Positions 55,136 through 64,000 of a stretch of 64,000 bases of DNA are shown piece after piece; position 1 is the stretch's first letter, and each line of letters starts with the position of its first letter. The notes under the pieces are model-generated. The model was not told the DNA's origin. It made no database searches and saw nothing but the letters and a program-made list of their open reading frames with translations. The DNA lies in NCBI GenBank assembly GCA_964558645.1, contig CAZLEV010000008.1:1-64000 (forward strand), in the 5' to 3' direction. This stretch comes from an uncultured archaeon. Its GTDB lineage: Archaea; Asgardarchaeota; Thorarchaeia; Thorarchaeales; Thorarchaeaceae. Made by a program: the position numbers and the translations under genes.

Positions 55136-55879
55136 CTAAGTTATGTTTCTGGGACTCTCCCTTCTTCGTGATGTTTCTCTTCGAATATCTCCACGCACAC
55201 CTATCGTGAAGGACTGCAGCGGAATCCGTTTGCCTGACCGGAATATGGCGTCTTGAGTCATCTTCAGGATACCTCTGCAGCATGGAACCTCAAGATGTAG
55301 TACCGTGACGTCTTTGATATCGTTGGCGCTAAGGAGTAGGTATAGCTGTTGTACATTCGTGTCATAGTTCTCGAACTTCGGGCAAAACATCACAACAACT
55401 CTTCCCTTGATGAAGTCATTGTGTATACTGGAATAAGCCAAGCTTGCACAGTCGGCCACGATAAGTAGTCTTGAGCCATCTAGGGCGGGATGCTGTGGGC
55501 TCACAAGTCTGAGTTTTACCGGCCATTGATTGAGATAAGAGGGTGTGTCCCCACTTGGGGGAATTCCGTAGTCAGTTTGGTCTATCTGTTCAGTGCCATA
55601 GACTAAGACTTGCTCTAACTCGTCATCAGCTGGTTTCTTCTGAGTGATATGCTCCATTGCGGCCTCCTCATCAAAAGGAACCGTTTCTCTTTCAACAAGT
55701 GTGAGGGCACCTGTGGGGCAGTGACCAATGCATGCTCCAAGCCCATCACAGAAGCTCTCAGCTACGACACGCGCCTTGCCATCCACCAGTTTCAAGGCAC
55801 CTTCCTCGCAGTTGGGGATGCAGTTTCCACAGCCGTTACACAGGTCTTCATCTATTTTGATCATTGGTCGTCTTACCAT
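55136..55879 (-). CDS. 4Fe-4S dicluster protein with a C-terminal Cys-containing domain
   Basis: CNGCGNCIPNC.EGA, CDGLGACIGHCP, QWPVKL.LV, ADC, CPK, EVPCC.G. Confidence 0.88.
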   Translation of the reverse strand: MVRRPMIKIDEDLCNGCGNCIPNCEEGALKLVDGKARVVAESFCDGLGACIGHCPTGALTLVERETVPFDEEAAMEHITQKKPADDELEQVLVYGTEQIDQTDYGIPPSGDTPSYLNQWPVKLRLVSPQHPALDGSRLLIVADCASLAYSSIHNDFIKGRVVVMFCPKFENYDTNVQQLYLLLSANDIKDVTVLHLEVPCCRGILKMTQDAIFRSGKRIPLQSFTIGVRGDIRRETSRRRESPRNIT

Positions 55880-56082
55880 TGCACGCCACAGTTGTACATC
55901 GTTAAGAGATATAATAAAGGTAGTAGTTACCAAATGGGAAGTATAACATTCGTTAAGACTATTCATCTGGCTCCGTTACATGAAGCCGACACAGTAGCAG
56001 TTGGGCCAGGTGACCGGCCTTGGTCAGAGACTCGCAACAAAACATACTGACTAAGTCTGACGAGCTGGGAGCTCAAAGGCTC

Positions 56083-56442
56083 CTAGTAGCCCCATTCCTG
56101 TCCCAAGCGCTGACGGTACCAGCGGGATCCGCGTTTCGTCAAGGAGTACCTGCCTTGTATCTCGCTCAATAGCCCCATGTTGACCATGTTTTGCAGTACT
56201 CCATAGAGTCTGTCCTCTGAGGAGCCAGTCATCTCTGAGAGCTGGGAGAATGAGAGCATTCCCTCTCGCTTCAGGAGTTGAGCCACCTCGAACTTTCCCA
56301 CCGCACGGGTGTCCTTACGGATGATGATGTGTCCGCAGTTCGTGCAGAGGAGATCGCCTTTCTGGTCGTCACGCGCCACTTCTTTGCTTCCACAAATTGG
56401 ACAGGTTGCATTTGAAAACCTGAGTGAGCGTCTATGTGACAT
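56083..56442 (-). CDS. TFIIB-type zinc ribbon fused to a winged helix
   Basis: CPICGSKEVARDDQKGDLLCTNCG followed by LSFSQLSEMTG...L..M...GLL...GRYSLTKRG. Confidence 0.8.
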   Translation of the reverse strand: MSHRRSLRFSNATCPICGSKEVARDDQKGDLLCTNCGHIIIRKDTRAVGKFEVAQLLKREGMLSFSQLSEMTGSSEDRLYGVLQNMVNMGLLSEIQGRYSLTKRGSRWYRQRLGQEWGY

Positions 56443-56509
56443 TCTGTTCCGACCATGCCGCCTCGAACCTGAACCTAGATAAAACTAGCGAATACACCAT
56501 GAACTTTTT

Positions 56510-57019
56510 TCATGCTTGATCTGATTGAGAGAGGTTTCTGAAGAATGACTCGTAGTCGATCTCGAATCCCACCCTCTTGCCGGGCCTGACCTTCTTGTTG
56601 TCATCAGAGAACTCGGTATATCCCATCGAATCAAGTTCTCTTAGATCTGCACGGACACCTCTTCGGCTCTTCTTTCTGAACTTCTGTACCCTATCAATGG
56701 AGACCCAGCCCCCTTCCTGATATGCCAGCGTGATCACCACCAGCAGAGTAGATGCAAGCCTATCGGGAAGCGGCGTTTCTTCCAGTGAGTCTTGGGTTCT
56801 TGTACTGGTGTCTAGATAGAATACATGGTCAATCGGATTATGTCTTATCTTCAGACCGAGAGGCTCTAGTTGGTTCTGCAGTGAACCCATCTTCTGGAAT
56901 AACACATGTCTACCAGCATCCTCAGGCAGTGCCAATGCGTCGAGAAGATCAGGCACACCTGCACCAATAGGATTGCCGGTTCTGGTGAGCATTCGGATCA
57001 GGATTGCGTATTCGTTCAT
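56510..57019 (-). CDS. Kite-type tandem winged-helix SMC subunit (Nse3/MAGE-like)
   Basis: L...LEPLGLKI......FYL (WH-A) and TLLVVITLAYQEGGWVS...L.EL..MGY (WH-B); downstream of smc and kleisin. Confidence 0.7.
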   Translation of the reverse strand: MNEYAILIRMLTRTGNPIGAGVPDLLDALALPEDAGRHVLFQKMGSLQNQLEPLGLKIRHNPIDHVFYLDTSTRTQDSLEETPLPDRLASTLLVVITLAYQEGGWVSIDRVQKFRKKSRRGVRADLRELDSMGYTEFSDDNKKVRPGKRVGFEIDYESFFRNLSQSDQA

Positions 57020-57447
57020 AGTGCTCTACCAAGCCTCCTTTACTGAGTGACCGCGAGTCATGATCCCGATATTCCTTTGCGCCTTGGTCACTTCTTGTGA
57101 CTTCACTTCGTGACTCCCTATTGTGGCTTTGCATTATATACTGATTCCGCACAGCATTGTTTGTGAAGTATCATGGCTCTAGCAACTAATAACCGAACTC
57201 ACTCCGTGAAGACGAACACCATCAGAGGTCAGTCTGCTGAGGCTCTTGCTTATGCCTATCGGACGGTCCTGAGGTGATATTGGATGACTGTTCATTCTCA
57301 ATTACTCTCAGTTAGGAATAGCCGGAGTCGCAGGGCAATATCGACGCAGGCAATCTCAGAGGTATACTTCTCGAGATGAATGCTGTGTGTCCTGATGTGG
57401 TTGATACGTTGAACGATTCCTCACCTGCTAGTCGGGAGATCTCCTGA

Positions 57448-58083
57448 CTATTCTCGCAGAACTATTCTATTATCTGGATTATAGACCAGTCTGCCCCTCG
57501 CTACCAGGATCACGACGAGCAGAAACCTTCGGAGGAACTTCTCGAAGTCCTCATGTTGGACAATGTCGTCGATGGAGATCTCTCTCCCTTTTGGAATACT
57601 CTTGAGAAAATCCTCGAGGTCTCTCATGAATACAGAGTCCTCCGACTGAAACGTGAAGCCATTTGGTAACTCCGTGATCTGAGGGATGGCATCTTCTGGT
57701 GGCTCCTCGGAGAGGGCTTCAATCATATGTAGTACTCTCTCGAAGGCTCGCGAGAGGGGGATGTAACTCAGCGTATTGGTAGTGATCGGGTGATTGTACT
57801 CTATCATCCCTGCCAGGGTTCTGGGTTTCACTCTCTTCAATGCGTTGACGTAGACTTCGGGGGCGGCCAGAATTCGAGCGAGTTCTTGGACCCTTGTGAC
57901 TTTTAGGCCCAATATCTCATTGAGCATCTCATCGACATCGATTCGGCTTCCGATTTCTGCTGCAGATGCCCTCAGTTGCTGAAAAGACTTTGTCAGCTTG
58001 AAATCAAATGGATCCTCTCCCCTCGCACGGATTGCTTCTGCCATTTCGAAGACTTCCTTCGCTAGGTCACCTTCTTCGGTCAT
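57448..58083 (-). CDS. scpA: Kleisin (ScpA/Nse4-like)
   Basis: N-terminal DPFD.K; C-terminal winged helix ISIDDIV...RRFLLVVILVARGRL; directly downstream of smc. Confidence 0.75.
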   Translation of the reverse strand: MTEEGDLAKEVFEMAEAIRARGEDPFDFKLTKSFQQLRASAAEIGSRIDVDEMLNEILGLKVTRVQELARILAAPEVYVNALKRVKPRTLAGMIEYNHPITTNTLSYIPLSRAFERVLHMIEALSEEPPEDAIPQITELPNGFTFQSEDSVFMRDLEDFLKSIPKGREISIDDIVQHEDFEKFLRRFLLVVILVARGRLVYNPDNRIVLRE

Positions 58084-58096
58084 CACGTTCACCCTA

Positions 58097-61000
58097 CTAT
58101 TGTCCCTCGAATCTGGGGCTCTCAATTATCACGGAGGGTTCAGTACCCTTCGGACTGACTACGCCGATACGTCTGTCAGCATGCTTTAGCAAGTGTGTGC
58201 TCTTGGCGGGTGTGAAGATTATGAACTGACTTCTTCTTGATGAGTCATGAAGTAGCATGCTGACCATCTCAGTGTTAGTGGCGTCGAGAAACGTGTCTAT
58301 CTCATCCAGAGCGTAGACTGGTGCAGGGTTGAAACGCTGAAGAGCTAGGATGAGCCCTATCGCAATCAAGGAGCGTTCGCCTCCCGAGCCTGCGCTTATC
58401 TCCTTGTATTCCTCGCTCTTTATTCTCGATTTGAAGTCTACCCCGTATTCTCCGTCATTCATCGAGAGCTCAAACCTGACTTCTGCTGCGAACTTCACGG
58501 TGCTCAGAATATCATTTACTTCGTCCTCCACCTCTCTCAACGTTTCGTTCATACCGTTGTGATACTGTGTTCTGATATCCCGTACAGCCTCTTCCGCTTC
58601 CTCCAGTTCCTCTCGTATCTCCTCTACCTTCATGGTGAGTTCTACTAGTCGTTGTTTGAGCTTGGACTCATTCTGTGCAAGCACTTCTGATACGTCCTGA
58701 TAGTCGTCTAGTATCGCTCTGACTCGAACAAGTTCTTGACGGACATCTTCTAGAGGCCTTACACCCTCTGGACATTCCTCGCCCTCGAGTGCCTTCCGAG
58801 TTTCATCCAGCTCAATTTCCATGTTGCTCATTTGTCTCTTCAGTTGTAGGACCTGCAGTTGGCTATTCTTTATACTCAGATTGAGTTCGACGAGCTGTTC
58901 AGCGAGTTCTCTGATAACGTCTCGCGAAGTCTGAAGCTCACTGCGAACACTTGTAAGCTCTTCTTCCACCTTTTCCCTGCCTGTCTTCAACGTTTCAATT
59001 GTGTCCAGTATTGTTCTTGCCGATGACTTCGACTTCTTCATTTCCGCACGCAGTTCTTCAAGCCGGTTGCTGAGCATGACAGTATCTTCTTCAATATTCT
59101 TCAGTTCTTGTCTCTTCAGGGCCTCATCTCTCTCGGTAGCGTTGAGGTTCGCCTCTGCCTGTGAGAGATCCTGTTGTAGCCTCTTCTGTTTCATTCTGAT
59201 TGCTCGTTGCTTTCCGACAAGTCTACTTCTCTCGGGTGGCTGAGTGTTATCCAGTGCTCGGAGCTCTCTCTCAGCGATTCCAAACTGTCGTTGGAGATCT
59301 TTAAGCTCATCATCTGTGGCTACTACTCTCTCCTGCAACTCTGGGATCCCTTCCATTAGCTCCTTGCGCTTTTCCCAGGTTCTGCCCCATCTGGTGAAAT
59401 GGCTCAGGAGTTCGACCACCTCTTCTCTCTCCTCCGTGACCTTTTCCAGTTCAGCGATTATCTCTGTGACTCTCTTGGAGGCTACCTTTCGTTGCTTTTC
59501 GAGTTCTTCGAGCCGGGACTGCAGCGGCGCCGTAGAAACCAGACCCGATGGTTCTCTGGCAGGATAGCTCATTGTCCTCGTGTTCTCTGGTACCACGAGA
59601 TGCCCCTCCAAAGAAACAGTAGTGATCCCCTTCTTGCGTGCTAGCCGTGATGCCATACGCGACTCTTCAGCGACAACTATCCTGCCAAAGGCTCTTGACA
59701 ATAGCCTTTCATACAGTTTCTCTAAGGCTACGAGGTTCCAGAGTTCTCCCCGAACATCCTCATCTTCCAGGGAAACCTCATCATGGCCATCTTCATCTAA
59801 TTGGAGGAATATGATGGGGGAGGAGGCGCCCATCTGGTTCCTCAGTCTCTCCAAGAGGGCATATTCAGCTTCATCGGTCACGATAAATGAAAAAGCCAGT
59901 TCATCTCGTAAGACTGCTTCAACTGCTGGTCCGAGGGTGTTATCTGCTTCTACCATCTCTATAACTGGACCGAAGACATTGGTGAGCCCGTGTACCTGAA
60001 GGGTTGCCTTGAGATCTCTCACATTCTTGGGTATCCGTTCTGAGGTCTCTGACAACTGAATCCTCAGGTCTTCGACCTGTTTCTGGAGCTGTGCAGCTCT
60101 AGTGTTCTCTCTGAACCTCTCCTCATTGAGAGTAGCTAGACGGTTTTCAAGGGACGACTTCGTCTTGGCCAAGTCCTTCTGATCGGTGCTCTCCAACGAG
60201 TCCCAGATGTTTCCCCATCGACTCTGGATACTCTCCAATTCGGCCTCGTCGACTTGGAGCCGTTCTCTGAGGCTTCTTAGCATCACATCCTTGCTCTCTA
60301 CCTGTCCTTGAAGGGCTTTGTAGGTGCCATAAGCCTCAGCTCTCTTCGTGTTCCACTCTGAGAAGATAGCCATGGAGTCTTCTAGTTCGTCTTGTTCTTG
60401 TTCAAGCCCTTCGAGTTCAATTTTGAGCCGCTTCAGGCTCTCCATATACTCCTCTTTCGCATTTGACCCTCTCCTCAGGTCGGCTATTATTTTGCTCTTC
60501 TTCCTCTCTTCGTTCTTCATTTCTTGTTCTAGTTTTCGGACTTCGAGACCGGCTTTCTTGCTATCATCCTCAAGTCTGAGTAGTCTGTTCTCCTCTTCCT
60601 TGACTCTCGCATCGATGTTACCTATCTCGCGCTGGAGTTTCTCCATTCTCTCTTCAATGGCTTCTGATTTCTCCTCTTCTTCAGATCGTTTTGCCTCGAG
60701 TTCGGCAGACTCAGCGATGACTTCTCCTAGACCCTCTTCTCTCTCCTCAGTTTCAGAGCGAGTATCCTCGAGCTTCTTCTCCAGAGTCGCTATCGTTGCC
60801 CATTTCAGCTCAAGCTCGAGCTCTTTTTCTGTGGCTTGAAGCTCTCTCTTCCGGAACAGACGCTTCAAGTCCTTCTGAAGGAGTTCAATCTCTTGCTGGA
60901 CTACCTGTGCCTCGGAGACCGCTGATTCTAATCGTCTCTTGTCGTGGGCGACCTGTGTTTCCTGAGAGCTAATCCGGTCTCTGAGAACCCCGAGTCCTGT

Positions 61001-61471
61001 CCCCTCTTCAACAAGTTTTCTTACCTCAATAGGATTCATATCACGAAGTGCATTGATTCTCTCCTGAGGCATGAACACGAGGGGGTTGTCAACATCAATC
61101 CCCAATCTCTCGACGGCGTTGTTGTGCTCTGCCGCTTTGACTCGCTTGCCGTCAATATAGGCGCGAGGTACTCCATCTCTGTCAATCTTTCTGAGTAGTT
61201 TCTGTGTCTGGCCGTCTGAGACCACAGTCAACTCAATCTCTGCGGAGCTGGCTCCGTAACGAATGAAATCACTCCACTTAGAGTATCTCTTCTCTCGCTG
61301 ATTGGAGCCAAGTGCGAATTTCACCGCATGAAAGATGGATGTCTTCCCTGACCCGTTGGGCCCTGTGATAACAGTGAGACCTGGATCGAACTCCACAGTC
61401 CCCTTGTAGAAGGAGAGGAAGTTCTCTAGCCTGACGCTAGCCAGACGAATCTCAGCCTCACTCAATATCAC
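58097..61471 (-). CDS. smc: SMC ATPase of the SMC5/6-like type
   Basis: LENF, GPNGSGKT, Q-loop NPLVFMPQERI, long coiled coils, hinge FGP...AVE..L...L..SFIV, SGGERS, ALDEIDTFLD, QFIIFTP. Confidence 0.92.
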   Translation of the reverse strand: MILSEAEIRLASVRLENFLSFYKGTVEFDPGLTVITGPNGSGKTSIFHAVKFALGSNQREKRYSKWSDFIRYGASSAEIELTVVSDGQTQKLLRKIDRDGVPRAYIDGKRVKAAEHNNAVERLGIDVDNPLVFMPQERINALRDMNPIEVRKLVEEGTGLGVLRDRISSQETQVAHDKRRLESAVSEAQVVQQEIELLQKDLKRLFRKRELQATEKELELELKWATIATLEKKLEDTRSETEEREEGLGEVIAESAELEAKRSEEEEKSEAIEERMEKLQREIGNIDARVKEEENRLLRLEDDSKKAGLEVRKLEQEMKNEERKKSKIIADLRRGSNAKEEYMESLKRLKIELEGLEQEQDELEDSMAIFSEWNTKRAEAYGTYKALQGQVESKDVMLRSLRERLQVDEAELESIQSRWGNIWDSLESTDQKDLAKTKSSLENRLATLNEERFRENTRAAQLQKQVEDLRIQLSETSERIPKNVRDLKATLQVHGLTNVFGPVIEMVEADNTLGPAVEAVLRDELAFSFIVTDEAEYALLERLRNQMGASSPIIFLQLDEDGHDEVSLEDEDVRGELWNLVALEKLYERLLSRAFGRIVVAEESRMASRLARKKGITTVSLEGHLVVPENTRTMSYPAREPSGLVSTAPLQSRLEELEKQRKVASKRVTEIIAELEKVTEEREEVVELLSHFTRWGRTWEKRKELMEGIPELQERVVATDDELKDLQRQFGIAERELRALDNTQPPERSRLVGKQRAIRMKQKRLQQDLSQAEANLNATERDEALKRQELKNIEEDTVMLSNRLEELRAEMKKSKSSARTILDTIETLKTGREKVEEELTSVRSELQTSRDVIRELAEQLVELNLSIKNSQLQVLQLKRQMSNMEIELDETRKALEGEECPEGVRPLEDVRQELVRVRAILDDYQDVSEVLAQNESKLKQRLVELTMKVEEIREELEEAEEAVRDIRTQYHNGMNETLREVEDEVNDILSTVKFAAEVRFELSMNDGEYGVDFKSRIKSEEYKEISAGSGGERSLIAIGLILALQRFNPAPVYALDEIDTFLDATNTEMVSMLLHDSSRRSQFIIFTPAKSTHLLKHADRRIGVVSPKGTEPSVIIESPRFEGQ

Positions 61472-61480
61472 ATACTACTC

Positions 61481-62551
61481 CTATCTTCCCATTATCCTTG
61501 CTAGTCGGTCGTGAGTCTTCTTTGCCCTCAGCAATCGTGTAAGCCTTTCTTCTGAATCTCCCTGAAGAAGGAACGGATATCTGTTCAGTATATCCAAGTC
61601 GTCGTTAGATAGAGGCAGGTTTGAATTCAGGGTTTCGATGACACCCTGGGTCTTGTGATACTCTTCTCCCACAGCCAACAGATAGAGCTGATCCAGGAAG
61701 TCATCTGGATACAGAGCCTGGGTCCGGTCAATCTCTTGTCGGGGTCGAGTCTCTACTTTTCGCGAGAGTCGCTTCAAATCTGAAACATTGCCGACCGGCT
61801 GGATGCCCGTAGTTTCTAGAAGGTTCTCTAACTTCTCCAATGTCATATGATTCGTTTCTGCGGGCGGATTGAGTAGCAGGCCTACCGCCAGGTGTTTCAA
61901 ATCTGCAAAGCTCCAGCCCTTGGTCGCATCTGTTACGATTGCCAAATCGATATCCTCTCTGTCTTTGAAGAATTGCTCGAAGAACCTAGTCCGATCTTCG
62001 GCATTGGGCTCCTCCAACATAATCGTCCTGTCAAACTGCAGTGCAAGTTCGGGAGGTAGTTCTTTGGGGCGGGTCACGGCAGCAACCACAAGGGTCTCAT
62101 CTCCATCCCATGTGGTCTCTTCCAGCTCACTTCTCAGTATTGATATGACATCATCGTTTCGTCTGAGTACTGACTCAAAGTGTCGGATATAAAGAATGAC
62201 TGGTGCATTTCTTCTTGCATACTCGAATACTGCCCTAATCGACTGGACTGCTTCACCTACGTCGGCTGATAGTAAGGCAAGTGAAACAGTAGCGAGTTTC
62301 AGGGGGATTTCTTTTGCTAGATGAAATGCATATGCACCGAAGTCTGTCCCTGGGGGGCCTACCAGAAGGATTCTTCCTCCAAAGAGTAACCCCATCGCAT
62401 CAAGTTGTTCCGTCATCATCGAGTAGTTGTCTATGACTGTCCTCATCAGTTCCGCCTGTCTAACGACACTGAACTGGCTGTGGCGCTGGGTCGGCAATTC
62501 CTCTGGATTCTTTATCTCGATGAGTTCGGAATAGGAAGTTTCTGAGCCCAA
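61481..62551 (-). CDS. Catalytically inactive classic-clade AAA+ protein
   Basis: ILLVGPPGTDF, AVFEYARRNAPVILYIRHFE, AAVTRP, FDR.I....P....R, T.GWS.ADL scaffold; Walker A Lys, Walker B DE and Arg fingers absent. Confidence 0.85.
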   Translation of the reverse strand: MGSETSYSELIEIKNPEELPTQRHSQFSVVRQAELMRTVIDNYSMMTEQLDAMGLLFGGRILLVGPPGTDFGAYAFHLAKEIPLKLATVSLALLSADVGEAVQSIRAVFEYARRNAPVILYIRHFESVLRRNDDVISILRSELEETTWDGDETLVVAAVTRPKELPPELALQFDRTIMLEEPNAEDRTRFFEQFFKDREDIDLAIVTDATKGWSFADLKHLAVGLLLNPPAETNHMTLEKLENLLETTGIQPVGNVSDLKRLSRKVETRPRQEIDRTQALYPDDFLDQLYLLAVGEEYHKTQGVIETLNSNLPLSNDDLDILNRYPFLLQGDSEERLTRLLRAKKTHDRLARIMGR

Positions 62552-62729
62552 TTCTGATGCCCCATTTAGTATCTTCTATGCTCACCTAATATCCCCATAT
62601 TACATCTTCGGAGCTAACATAATTCCGCGCCTTCCGAGAAATGATTCGGAAGGTTTCTTTCATGGTCTGACCATAGTATCAATAAGCAGAACTAAGAGAT
62701 GAAACTCATTACGGTGAGAGTGACACTAT

Positions 62730-64000
62730 ATGGCCAGTCGAAATGAGCTTCTCAGAGAGAAGGTCTGGAACGTAATCGGAACGGTGGAGAGCAGAGGGCT
62801 TTTCGTACACTCAGAAGACCTGCCGATACGGTACAATCCATCTGGAGGAGCCTCTACCAAGAAGTCTAGCCTTCCTCTGATCGTTGGCGCATGCGTGTTG
62901 AATTCGCTGGTGCCTAGGTCTGCTATGTTACTTGTCGGCGGCCATGGTGGCGGGAAGACTACTCTCATCAAGCTGCTGGGTCGGATGATGACAGGAAGCA
63001 GCATAGACCAGATCGAAGAGGGTATTCTTCACGGGCATCCTCAGCTCACTGAGGAGAAGATGGTAGCTACTCTCAAACCGGGCCCTCTCATGAAGGAGGG
63101 CAAAGAGGTTGTTGTGTGGCGAAGGTTTGTGACAGGTTTCTGGAAGATTCTGGATGAGATCAACCGACTGACACCACACGCTCAGAACATCCTGCTCTCT
63201 ATGCTTGCGGAGGGAGAACTGAAGTACTATGATGAGGTCAAGAGATGTGAGGAGTATTGCCTTTACGCAACCATGAATCCATCTGATTCCGGAACTTTCG
63301 ACTTGGCACCTCCCTTCTTGGACAGGTTTGGCATCGCCGTTCCCATAACAATGCCTTCAGTTGACGACTTGGAGTTGATTCTTGCTTCTCGCGACGAGAA
63401 GCTCTTCGGATACGATGAGCTCTGGCAAGTTCCTGCAATCCTCGAAGTTGAAGACCTCTTGACAATCTGGAATCTTGCCGACAAGATGCCTGTGGTCTCT
63501 GAGGCATCAGAATTCATGAGGGCTCTAGTGAGAGAGTTCGGCGCATGCATTCGTGTGGACAAGAGCCAAGTCCAAGATCCCAACATCGATTCCGGATTAT
63601 GCGATGGCTGTCACTTCAATACTGCCAAGAGTGTCTGCAACAAAGTACTGATACCTCTCTCAGTTCGAGCTGCCAAAGATCTGAATCGCTACTCAAAGGC
63701 GGCAGCCTGGCTTTTTGGAGCAAGTGAGGTGAACGTCGAGATTGTGAAATCCATAGCTCCCCTCGTCTTCTGGCACAGGACCAGCTTCAGTCGTGAGGAG
63801 ATTGCAAAGCCACCCTTCTACGGCAATCAGTTCCAATTCACACAACATCTTGTGGAACTCGCGTCCGCTCGTTTTGCCAAGAGAGCGGCTGCTTTCGCAT
63901 TGATTGAGAAGTTCAAGCACGGGAAGGCTTCAAAGAAAGACCTCGACGAACTGCGAGAGATGTCAAAGAGCGACTTGCTCGTGAAACTCGACTACGTCCG
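62730..64000 (+). CDS. MoxR-like AAA+ ATPase (partial, runs off the window; not in the ORF track)
   Basis: Translated by hand from the ATG at 62730: LLVGGHGGGKTT, ILDEINRL, YATMNP.D.GTFDL.PPFLDRF, LSVRA; open to the end of the window. Confidence 0.88.
   Translation, partial: MASRNELLREKVWNVIGTVESRGLFVHSEDLPIRYNPSGGASTKKSSLPLIVGACVLNSLVPRSAMLLVGGHGGGKTTLIKLLGRMMTGSSIDQIEEGILHGHPQLTEEKMVATLKPGPLMKEGKEVVVWRRFVTGFWKILDEINRLTPHAQNILLSMLAEGELKYYDEVKRCEEYCLYATMNPSDSGTFDLAPPFLDRFGIAVPITMPSVDDLELILASRDEKLFGYDELWQVPAILEVEDLLTIWNLADKMPVVSEASEFMRALVREFGACIRVDKSQVQDPNIDSGLCDGCHFNTAKSVCNKVLIPLSVRAAKDLNRYSKAAAWLFGASEVNVEIVKSIAPLVFWHRTSFSREEIAKPPFYGNQFQFTQHLVELASARFAKRAAAFALIEKFKHGKASKKDLDELREMSKSDLLVKLDYV

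Follow-up and report, generated by a model that had tools for sequence, protein, structure and literature searches.

SMC complexes organise chromosomes across all domains of life, and a second complex of this kind in Asgard archaea has been discussed as the source of eukaryotic SMC5/6. The present analysis concerns a stretch of 64,000 nucleotides (nt), called the window below, which forms positions 1 to 64,000 of contig CAZLEV010000008.1 in assembly GCA_964558645.1, from an uncultured archaeon of the Thorarchaeaceae. Its last part, positions 56083-64000, contains five co-oriented genes on the - strand, encoding a degenerate AAA+ protein (pAAA, for pseudo-AAA), an SMC protein, a kleisin-like protein, a kite, and a protein with a Zn-ribbon and a winged helix-turn-helix (wHTH) domain, hereafter ZnR; a divergent gene for a MoxR-like ATPase faces them on the + strand. 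As a whole, these genes probably specify the second SMC complex of Asgard archaea together with a dead AAA+ accessory protein, and a pair made of the MoxR-like ATPase and a VWA-domain protein (MoxR-VWA) appears as a possible remodeller. pAAA occurs once per genome and has been passed on jointly with the SMC paralogue in the various Asgard families. This pseudo-AAA partner is what is new here, along with, less firmly, the MoxR-VWA association; the core complex was already known.

A dead AAA+ protein upstream of the second SMC

The layout of the region was established by open reading frame (ORF) listing and translation, and it agrees in gene order, strands and spacing with an earlier, sequence-only reading of the window. 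The features are as follows.

61481-62551, - strand: pAAA, first gene of the operon, 356 amino acids (aa), a catalytically dead AAA+ protein of the classical clade (PF00004, 1.8e-13)
61484-61738, - strand: C-terminal helical domain of pAAA, about 85 aa, family-defining, the most conserved block of the pAAA alignment
58097-61471, - strand: second (non-canonical) SMC, 1124 aa (SMC_N 3e-41, SMC_hinge 1e-7)
57448-58083, - strand: probable kleisin, 211 aa, ATG at 58083 (position between SMC and kite; weak ScpA alignment)
57020-57447: spacer between kleisin and kite, 428 nt, no ORF of note
56510-57019, - strand: kite, 169 aa, tandem winged helix (AlphaFold2 fold and Foldseek)
56083-56442, - strand: ZnR, 119 aa, the final gene of the cluster, a TFIIB-type Zn-ribbon protein with a wHTH (PF08271 1.5e-8, TrmB-like wHTH)
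62552-62729: divergent intergenic region between pAAA and MoxR, 178 nt
from 62730, + strand: MoxR-like AAA+ ATPase, 568 aa, running past the window end (contig end 64433; AAA_5 3.9e-13)

The pAAA and SMC genes are separated by 9 nt and the SMC gene and the kleisin ATG by 13 nt, while 428 nt lie between kleisin and kite and 67 nt between kite and ZnR. GC content is even across the region, the module having that of its flanks.

The sequence-only reading had proposed pAAA as a dedicated partner of the SMC and had named a lack of synteny in relatives as the finding to fear. Comparison with other Asgard genomes argues for the partnership: a pAAA gene lies directly upstream of a second-type SMC in all 39 loci inspected, across eight Asgard families (given below by working labels such as f1). 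In every one of the 20 Thorarchaeales loci, 19 of them from the window's own family and one from another, MoxR, pAAA and SMC occur together, with kleisin, kite and ZnR also present where the contig reaches, and this at protein identities falling as low as 28% for pAAA and 29% for SMC. In all 17 loci from four other families the SMC is immediately preceded by a pAAA-like gene, and in the 15 with enough sequence beyond it kleisin and kite come next; two f19 loci keep the same order, AAA-SMC-kleisin-kite. The stop and start codons of pAAA and SMC often overlap.

The phyletic pattern points the same way. Among 301 Asgard genomes, the C-terminal domain of pAAA was found in 143 (136 with a narrower profile), in exactly one ORF per genome, and at family level its distribution is that of the kite:

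f1: pAAA domain in 60/76 genomes, kite in 62/76
f2: pAAA domain in 1/1, kite in 1/1
f7: pAAA domain in 3/5, kite in 3/5
f8: pAAA domain in 1/1, kite in 1/1
f9: pAAA domain in 62/68, kite in 63/68
f19: pAAA domain in 6/6, kite in 6/6
f24: pAAA domain in 7/7, kite in 7/7
f29: pAAA domain in 1/2, kite in 1/2

Some 20 further families among the same 301 genomes have neither the pAAA domain nor the kite. Genomes that are discordant for the two are mostly incomplete or carry the genes at contig ends, and there are three stray matches: f25 has a weak pAAA domain (E 4e-4), one truncated f20 contig carries a kite, and an f28 "kite" is ScpB. In about 50 genomes whose coordinates were checked and which carry both genes on one contig, pAAA and kite lie 3.9-14.8 kb apart, with a mode of about 4.1 kb, which is the length of SMC plus kleisin.

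Is pAAA truly dead, as the sequence-only reading had it? Its Walker A motif reads GPPGTDF, without the Lys and Thr, and the alignment of 21 Thorarchaeales orthologues reveals no conserved Walker B acidic pair, no sensor-1 Asn and no Arg fingers. The AlphaFold2 model (pLDDT 84) nonetheless keeps the AAA fold, with Foldseek matches to FtsH, p97, PAN, Vps4 and spastin at E ~1e-13, so that the claim is borne out: the fold and lid of classical AAA+ proteins (PF00004) are present, whereas the catalytic motifs are gone. These motifs are also replaced in families f7, f8, f9 and f24. Only f19 keeps a Walker A in its pAAA, GR(S/P)GTGKT, with DN instead of DE in Walker B. At the two f19 loci (L109:5694-10701 and L112:5419-10435) the AAA protein, 459-463 aa long, is extended at its N-terminus and has a weakly matching version of the pAAA C-terminal domain; the next genes encode an SMC of only 832-835 aa, a kleisin and a kite. 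Since one lineage thus retains GxxGxGKT beside a DN Walker B, the ancestor is suggested to have been an ATP-binding AAA partner that later lost nucleotide binding, a state which the f19 variant may still represent.

The best-conserved part of pAAA is its C-terminal domain, with the pattern PDDFLDQLYLxAVG..LN..LPL..YPFLL..RLLRAKK..DRL.RIMGR and an identity of 24-64% across lineages, including invariant positions. Among 1.84 billion representative proteins, its profile matched only 108, mostly of 270-620 aa together with shorter fragments, and nearly all of them carry the domain at or near the C-terminus; a search of the ESM Atlas with the domain gave no match at or above 0.8. Public annotations of pAAA-type proteins read "AAA family ATPase," "ATP-binding protein," "FtsH 4," or "hypothetical." The possibility that the domain mimics the N-terminal part of a kleisin was tried and abandoned, hhalign finding nothing between it and the kleisin profile. 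In f7 and f8 the protein has been shortened to the lid and the C-terminal domain, at 172-315 aa overall and 172-276 aa in f7; hhalign matches the pAAA profile to the 315-aa protein of another family (probability 99, E 6e-18). The family may be read as a motor ATPase turning stepwise into a pseudo-enzyme, ATP-binding in one lineage, dead in most, and an eroded stump in others.

The SMC, kleisin and kite subunits

The window SMC is a regular member of its family, with conserved GPNGSGKT (Walker A), SGGERS (signature) and LDEID motifs and a Pfam SMC_N match that spans residues 10-1106. It reaches 270 bits on TIGR02169 (SMC_prok_A), where the cut-off is 729. A whole-genome search located the canonical SMC of the same genome on another contig, C6, at 907 bits, followed by ScpA (PF02616, 7e-8) and ScpB (PF04079, 1e-30); unlike those partners, the proteins encoded beside the window SMC match neither PF02616 nor PF04079. 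The genome holds a second, non-canonical SMC-kleisin-kite set beside Smc-ScpA-ScpB. A quick IQ-TREE analysis was made of 20 pAAA-linked SMCs, 7 canonical Asgard SMCs and 2 long SMCs of about 1480 aa. The sequence-only reading would have been in difficulty had its SMC grouped with canonical Smc-ScpAB, and it does not, because the pAAA-linked SMCs split off from the canonical Asgard ones at an SH-aLRT (approximate likelihood-ratio test) support of 99; inside their clade, the branching follows Asgard families. By score, by tree position and by the absence of ScpA and ScpB partners, the window SMC thus falls outside canonical prokaryotic Smc.

Other SMC operons came to light along the way. Lokiarchaeia-like genomes have a third SMC (L128:6141-10604 and L135:4436-8884), unusually long at 1482-1487 aa, which groups with the canonical SMCs in the tree. 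In f28 (L111:4012-10426), a 560-aa AAA protein with an intact Walker A (GPSGNGKT) and no recognisable pAAA C-terminal domain is encoded directly upstream of a canonical-type SMC, a 232-aa ORF and ScpB (PF04079, 2.8e-13). Finally, an f24 genome, G215, contains an operon (L136:8824-15626) headed by an apparently intact 327-aa AAA protein (PF00004, 9e-30) and continuing with a 1057-aa SMC-like ABC ATPase that has no hinge match. Three smaller proteins follow, of 322, 313 and 176 aa in that order, the 313-aa one matching Nse4_C below threshold (19-23 bits).

How close is the second SMC to SMC5/6? Sequence evidence on this kinship is indirect and mixed. The sequence-only reading had recognised hallmarks of SMC5/6 rather than of condensin, and two of them stand: the hinge lacks the Gly motif (G..G...GG) that the canonical SMC of the same genome possesses, and the Pro at the H-loop position is invariant throughout the second-SMC paralogue family. 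A third, the Q-loop MPQERI, had to be given up as a family hallmark because it is limited to Thorarchaeota; other lineages have SQGKI or PQGRV, to be compared with canonical LQGEI, and families f2, f7, f8, f9, f19 and f24 show (S/P)QG, as in canonical SMC. In single-sequence comparisons the window SMC scores 100 bits with Pyrococcus Smc, 84 with SMC2, 64 with SMC5 and 32 with SMC6, and the profile of the paralogue family scores 258 bits with SMC2, 247 with SMC3, 178 with SMC6 and 175 with SMC5. By raw similarity, then, the protein is nearer to Smc and SMC1-4 than to SMC5/6. The canonical SMC of the same genome has no SMC5/6 among its best 60 matches.

Second SMC-kleisin-kite operons related to SMC5/6 have been published for TACK and Asgard archaea (van Hooff, Raas, Tromer and Eme, bioRxiv 10.1101/2024.01.07.573240; Yoshinaga and Inagaki, 2021, PMC8665677), so the core described here cannot count as the new chromosome-maintenance system that the sequence-only reading had announced. 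What survives of that claim is the pAAA companion, for which no published description was found: full-text literature searches returned no paper tying an AAA+ or MoxR gene to archaeal SMC operons, and neither gene is mentioned in the preprint of van Hooff et al. and its supplement (bioRxiv 10.1101/2024.01.07.573240). Supplementary Table 3 of the same preprint lists a Thorarchaeaceae genome with one Nse1/3-related and one ScpB-like kite, and the two kites found in the present genome fit that entry.

The earlier labels of kleisin and kite are of unequal solidity. The 211-aa protein, which sits between SMC and kite in every locus, is a probable kleisin, an assignment resting on this position, on a weak but collinear hhalign alignment of 198 columns with the ScpA encoded elsewhere in the genome (E 5e-4, probability 32%) and on its nearest named ESM Atlas clusters, which bear Nse4_C (0.92 and 0.83) or are of ScpA (0.79); within the 0.92 cluster, 18% of the members carry Nse4_C. 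The protein itself has no Pfam match, its 18 orthologues match no kleisin family, and Nse4_C is absent both there and from the window-type kleisins of five genomes, in which it matched a different operon. A profile search retrieved only unnamed Asgard proteins without Pfam domains and gave no bridge to TACK, and the kleisin and kite profiles yielded nothing useful against PDB sequences. The 169-aa protein is, according to its predicted fold, a kite: the top Foldseek matches of its AlphaFold2 model (pLDDT 81) are nearly all kites, namely ScpB, JetB, MukE, MAGE-G1/Nse1 and Nse1-Nse3 (E 2.5e-6 to 2e-4), a range in which the fold does not distinguish an ScpB-like from an Nse1/3-like subtype. It has no ScpB Pfam match and no hhalign match to the ScpB of its own genome.

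In the Thorarchaeota loci that reach far enough, the kite is followed by ZnR, which at 51-97% identity is among the best-conserved genes of the cluster, whereas no ZnR homologue adjoins the kite in the loci of other Asgard families. Thorarchaeales alone retain the gene behind the kite, and its product may serve there as a DNA-binding subunit or a regulator particular to this lineage. The junction between kleisin and kite is a hot spot of rearrangement. The two genes abut or overlap in most relatives; in the window's genus they are separated by the ORF-free spacer of 428 nt, and in another Thorarchaeota genus (L023:1575-3998) by a 2.4-kb insert on the opposite strand with genes for two membrane proteins of 448 and 146 aa, the larger one judged from its sequence to be multi-pass. 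One genome (L035) carries kite and ZnR in inverted orientation. Given this spacer, insert and inversion, kite and ZnR may form a transcription unit of their own. Downstream of the cluster (55136-55966, - strand) lies a gene whose 276-aa product has a pair of 4Fe-4S ferredoxin motifs and many Cys residues in its C-terminal part; it is not counted as a module member because it is conserved beside the cluster only in the sister genome.

The MoxR-VWA pair

The sequence-only reading had described an active MoxR-like AAA+ facing the operon, and a MoxR-like protein with its motifs intact is what is found: the protein, whose gene starts 178 nt from that of pAAA, matches AAA_3 and AAA_lid_2 as well as AAA_5, and both Walker motifs are preserved, A as GGHGGGKT and B as ILDE. 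It fits no curated NCBIfam equivalog. In the sister genome, the gene downstream of MoxR encodes a 571-aa protein with a sub-threshold Pfam match to VWA_2 (1.5e-4), so that the two genes are arranged as is typical of MoxR-VWA pairs, with the VWA protein encoded behind an ATPase that has a lid and complete Walker motifs. With 54-97% identity across relatives, MoxR is the most conserved gene of the neighbourhood.

The pair stands next to SMC genes in several ways. While MoxR is divergent from pAAA in Thorarchaeales (f1, f2), families f7 and f8 have a same-strand array of six overlapping genes, MoxR-VWA-pAAA-SMC-kleisin-kite, and on one f20 contig MoxR-VWA comes after the kite. Two f24 genomes and one f9 genome, of Lokiarchaeia-like families, have the pair convergent to the canonical SMC (1195-1206 aa) instead, with one ORF of about 190 aa in between (L129:6177-14181, L133:2043-9981 and L131:8848-16543), and not beside the pAAA-linked SMC. 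Orthologues of MoxR are present in the module-bearing families and in f17 and f20, and in none of about 20 other families. The connection with the SMC system proposed by the sequence-only reading is more than local order, since the same-strand array recurs in two other families, but the pair also occurs away from the operon.

Where MoxR-VWA of f17 and f20 has no SMC neighbour, a conserved ORF of 439-483 aa with no Pfam assignment lies directly upstream on the same strand (L115:11470-12921, L117:11577-12899, L118:5911-7248, L119:3352-4671); its product may be an alternative partner or client.

It is quite conceivable, though we do not favour it, that MoxR-VWA is an independent chaperone unit with other clients, that its adjacency to SMC genes is conserved gene order, and that pAAA alone belongs to the SMC system. 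MoxR-VWA lacks an SMC neighbour in f17 and in most f20 genomes, the conserved upstream ORF taking its place; half of the Lokiarchaeia-like loci inspected show no SMC gene near the pair, and it is far more conserved than the SMC genes. Against this, the pair adjoins SMC loci in at least five arrangements, in lineages whose SMCs share less than 30% identity. These include the tight six-gene array and, in two families, adjacency to the canonical SMC, so that inertia of gene order is hard to accept as the explanation. The link between MoxR-VWA and SMC is best described as recurrent but facultative, precisely because of the loci without an SMC nearby.

Proposed function and relation to known systems

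In the reading we favour, the second Asgard SMC complex consists of a kleisin-like protein, a kite and a single type of SMC, which presumably pairs with itself, and pAAA would be a non-catalytic accessory subunit or regulator of this ring. Docking would probably take place through its C-terminal domain, the only part of pAAA kept in every lineage. pAAA could then act as an adaptor, a gate or a loading factor, for which the "wrench" of the clamp-loader delta subunit and Nse5/6 offer analogies only. MoxR-VWA, for its part, might use ATP to remodel SMC complexes, in their assembly, recycling or release, and the VWA protein would then bind the substrate through its metal-ion-dependent adhesion site (MIDAS). 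A stronger version, in which pAAA is a stoichiometric fourth subunit of the ring that gates or loads it through the C-terminal domain, and MoxR-VWA is moreover the dedicated remodeller of both Asgard SMC complexes, seems to us rather unlikely in that full form.

Several observations weigh against even the more cautious proposal. The case draws wholly on gene order and on distribution among genomes, and genomes that are related do not make independent samples. MoxR-VWA stands apart from the second-SMC operon in most Lokiarchaeia-like genomes and has no SMC gene near it in f17 and most of f20, so that it may serve other clients. The body of pAAA is eroding in some lineages, and the AAA fold itself may be dispensable, given what is left of it in f7. 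The kleisin assignment is weak at the sequence level. That some Thorarchaeota have lost pAAA, kite and MoxR together adds little, for the genes are adjacent there and a single deletion explains it.

Could the module be a defence system instead? In that case it would conduct surveillance against plasmids or viruses in the manner of Wadjet or Lamassu, with pAAA and MoxR-VWA as sensor or effector parts and no chromosome-maintenance complex at all. The architecture of SMC, kleisin and kite is indeed common to JetABC, the kite model also matches JetB and MukE, the AAA core of pAAA gives weak matches to the anti-phage ATPase IetA/IteA, and one Lokiarchaeia-like genome holds a further AAA-headed SMC-like operon. 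PADLOC, however, returned only weak generic head-domain matches for the SMC (LmuB, JetC, mad3), no JetA, JetB or JetD, and nothing for kleisin, kite, MoxR or VWA; the cluster contains no nuclease or other effector gene, and its GC content is that of the flanks. Single-copy, near-universal in two large families (60/76 and 62/68 genomes) and apparently vertical, with an SMC tree that follows families, the module resembles a core gene set and not a patchy defence island, which makes a defence role improbable. Still harder to uphold is the view of pAAA as a decaying relic, or an unrelated co-transcribed gene, placed there by historical accident and without any SMC role: it can invoke the lost catalytic motifs and the shortened body (172-315 aa in two families), and a complex prediction with SMC heads (residues 1-212 and 907-1124), kleisin and pAAA, run without kite, arms and hinge, scored 0.00 and is neutral, giving no verdict, but the reading frame of pAAA is intact, with no internal stops, in every genome examined, its adjacency to the SMC is kept across eight families at 16-28% protein identity, its C-terminal domain is conserved with invariant positions, and its family-level distribution equals that of the kite.

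Should the stronger version hold, with pAAA as a fourth subunit of the ring and MoxR-VWA as remodeller of both SMC complexes, the closest archaeal relatives of eukaryotes would possess a prokaryotic, non-homologous counterpart of the eukaryotic loader and releaser machinery. Wherever an Asgard lineage has the complex, pAAA goes with it, which makes this protein a concrete and testable candidate for a factor that loads, regulates or removes such SMC rings; the energy-consuming MoxR-VWA pair, found repeatedly beside SMC genes, is another. All these proteins are open to co-expression and reconstitution from sequence alone.

How does this system compare with those already known? Classical-clade AAA+ proteins (FtsH, Cdc48/p97, PAN/Rpt, Vps4/CdvC, spastin) share their fold and lid with pAAA, which differs from them in lacking the Walker A Lys and Thr, the Walker B Asp-Glu, sensor-1, the Arg fingers and an N-terminal substrate domain, and in having an extra C-terminal domain found nowhere else. 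In eukaryotes, Nse5/6 and Nse2 are accessory subunits of SMC5/6 that regulate its ATPase activity and loading, the former being alpha-solenoids and the latter a SUMO ligase. The likeness of pAAA to them is a functional analogy only, that of an accessory which is neither SMC, kleisin nor kite; it bears no sequence or fold relation to them and combines a degenerate AAA+ fold with a novel C-terminal domain. The window-type MoxR resembles those of the known MoxR-VWA pairs (RavA-ViaA, CbbQ-CbbO, NorQ-NorD, GvpN) in being a lidded ATPase of the AAA_5/AAA_3 type with a VWA protein after it. It differs in its long C-terminal extension and in being associated with SMC loci. To our knowledge neither of these has been described for any MoxR pair, and literature searches found none.

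The core complex has the architecture of canonical Smc-ScpAB from bacteria and archaea, that is, an SMC with hinge and ABC head, a kleisin (here a probable one) and a tandem winged-helix kite, ScpB being even the best structural match of the kite model; it departs from Smc-ScpAB in the missing ScpA and ScpB Pfam matches, the hinge without the Gly motif, the score of 270 against 729 bits, and the separate clade. It is closest to the published archaeal operons related to SMC5/6, which likewise have a second SMC beside the canonical one, the order SMC-kleisin-kite, a kleisin that is not ScpA and a kite that is not ScpB. Those operons were described with three subunits only, whereas here the set is joined by an ever-present pAAA and by MoxR-VWA as a recurrent neighbour.

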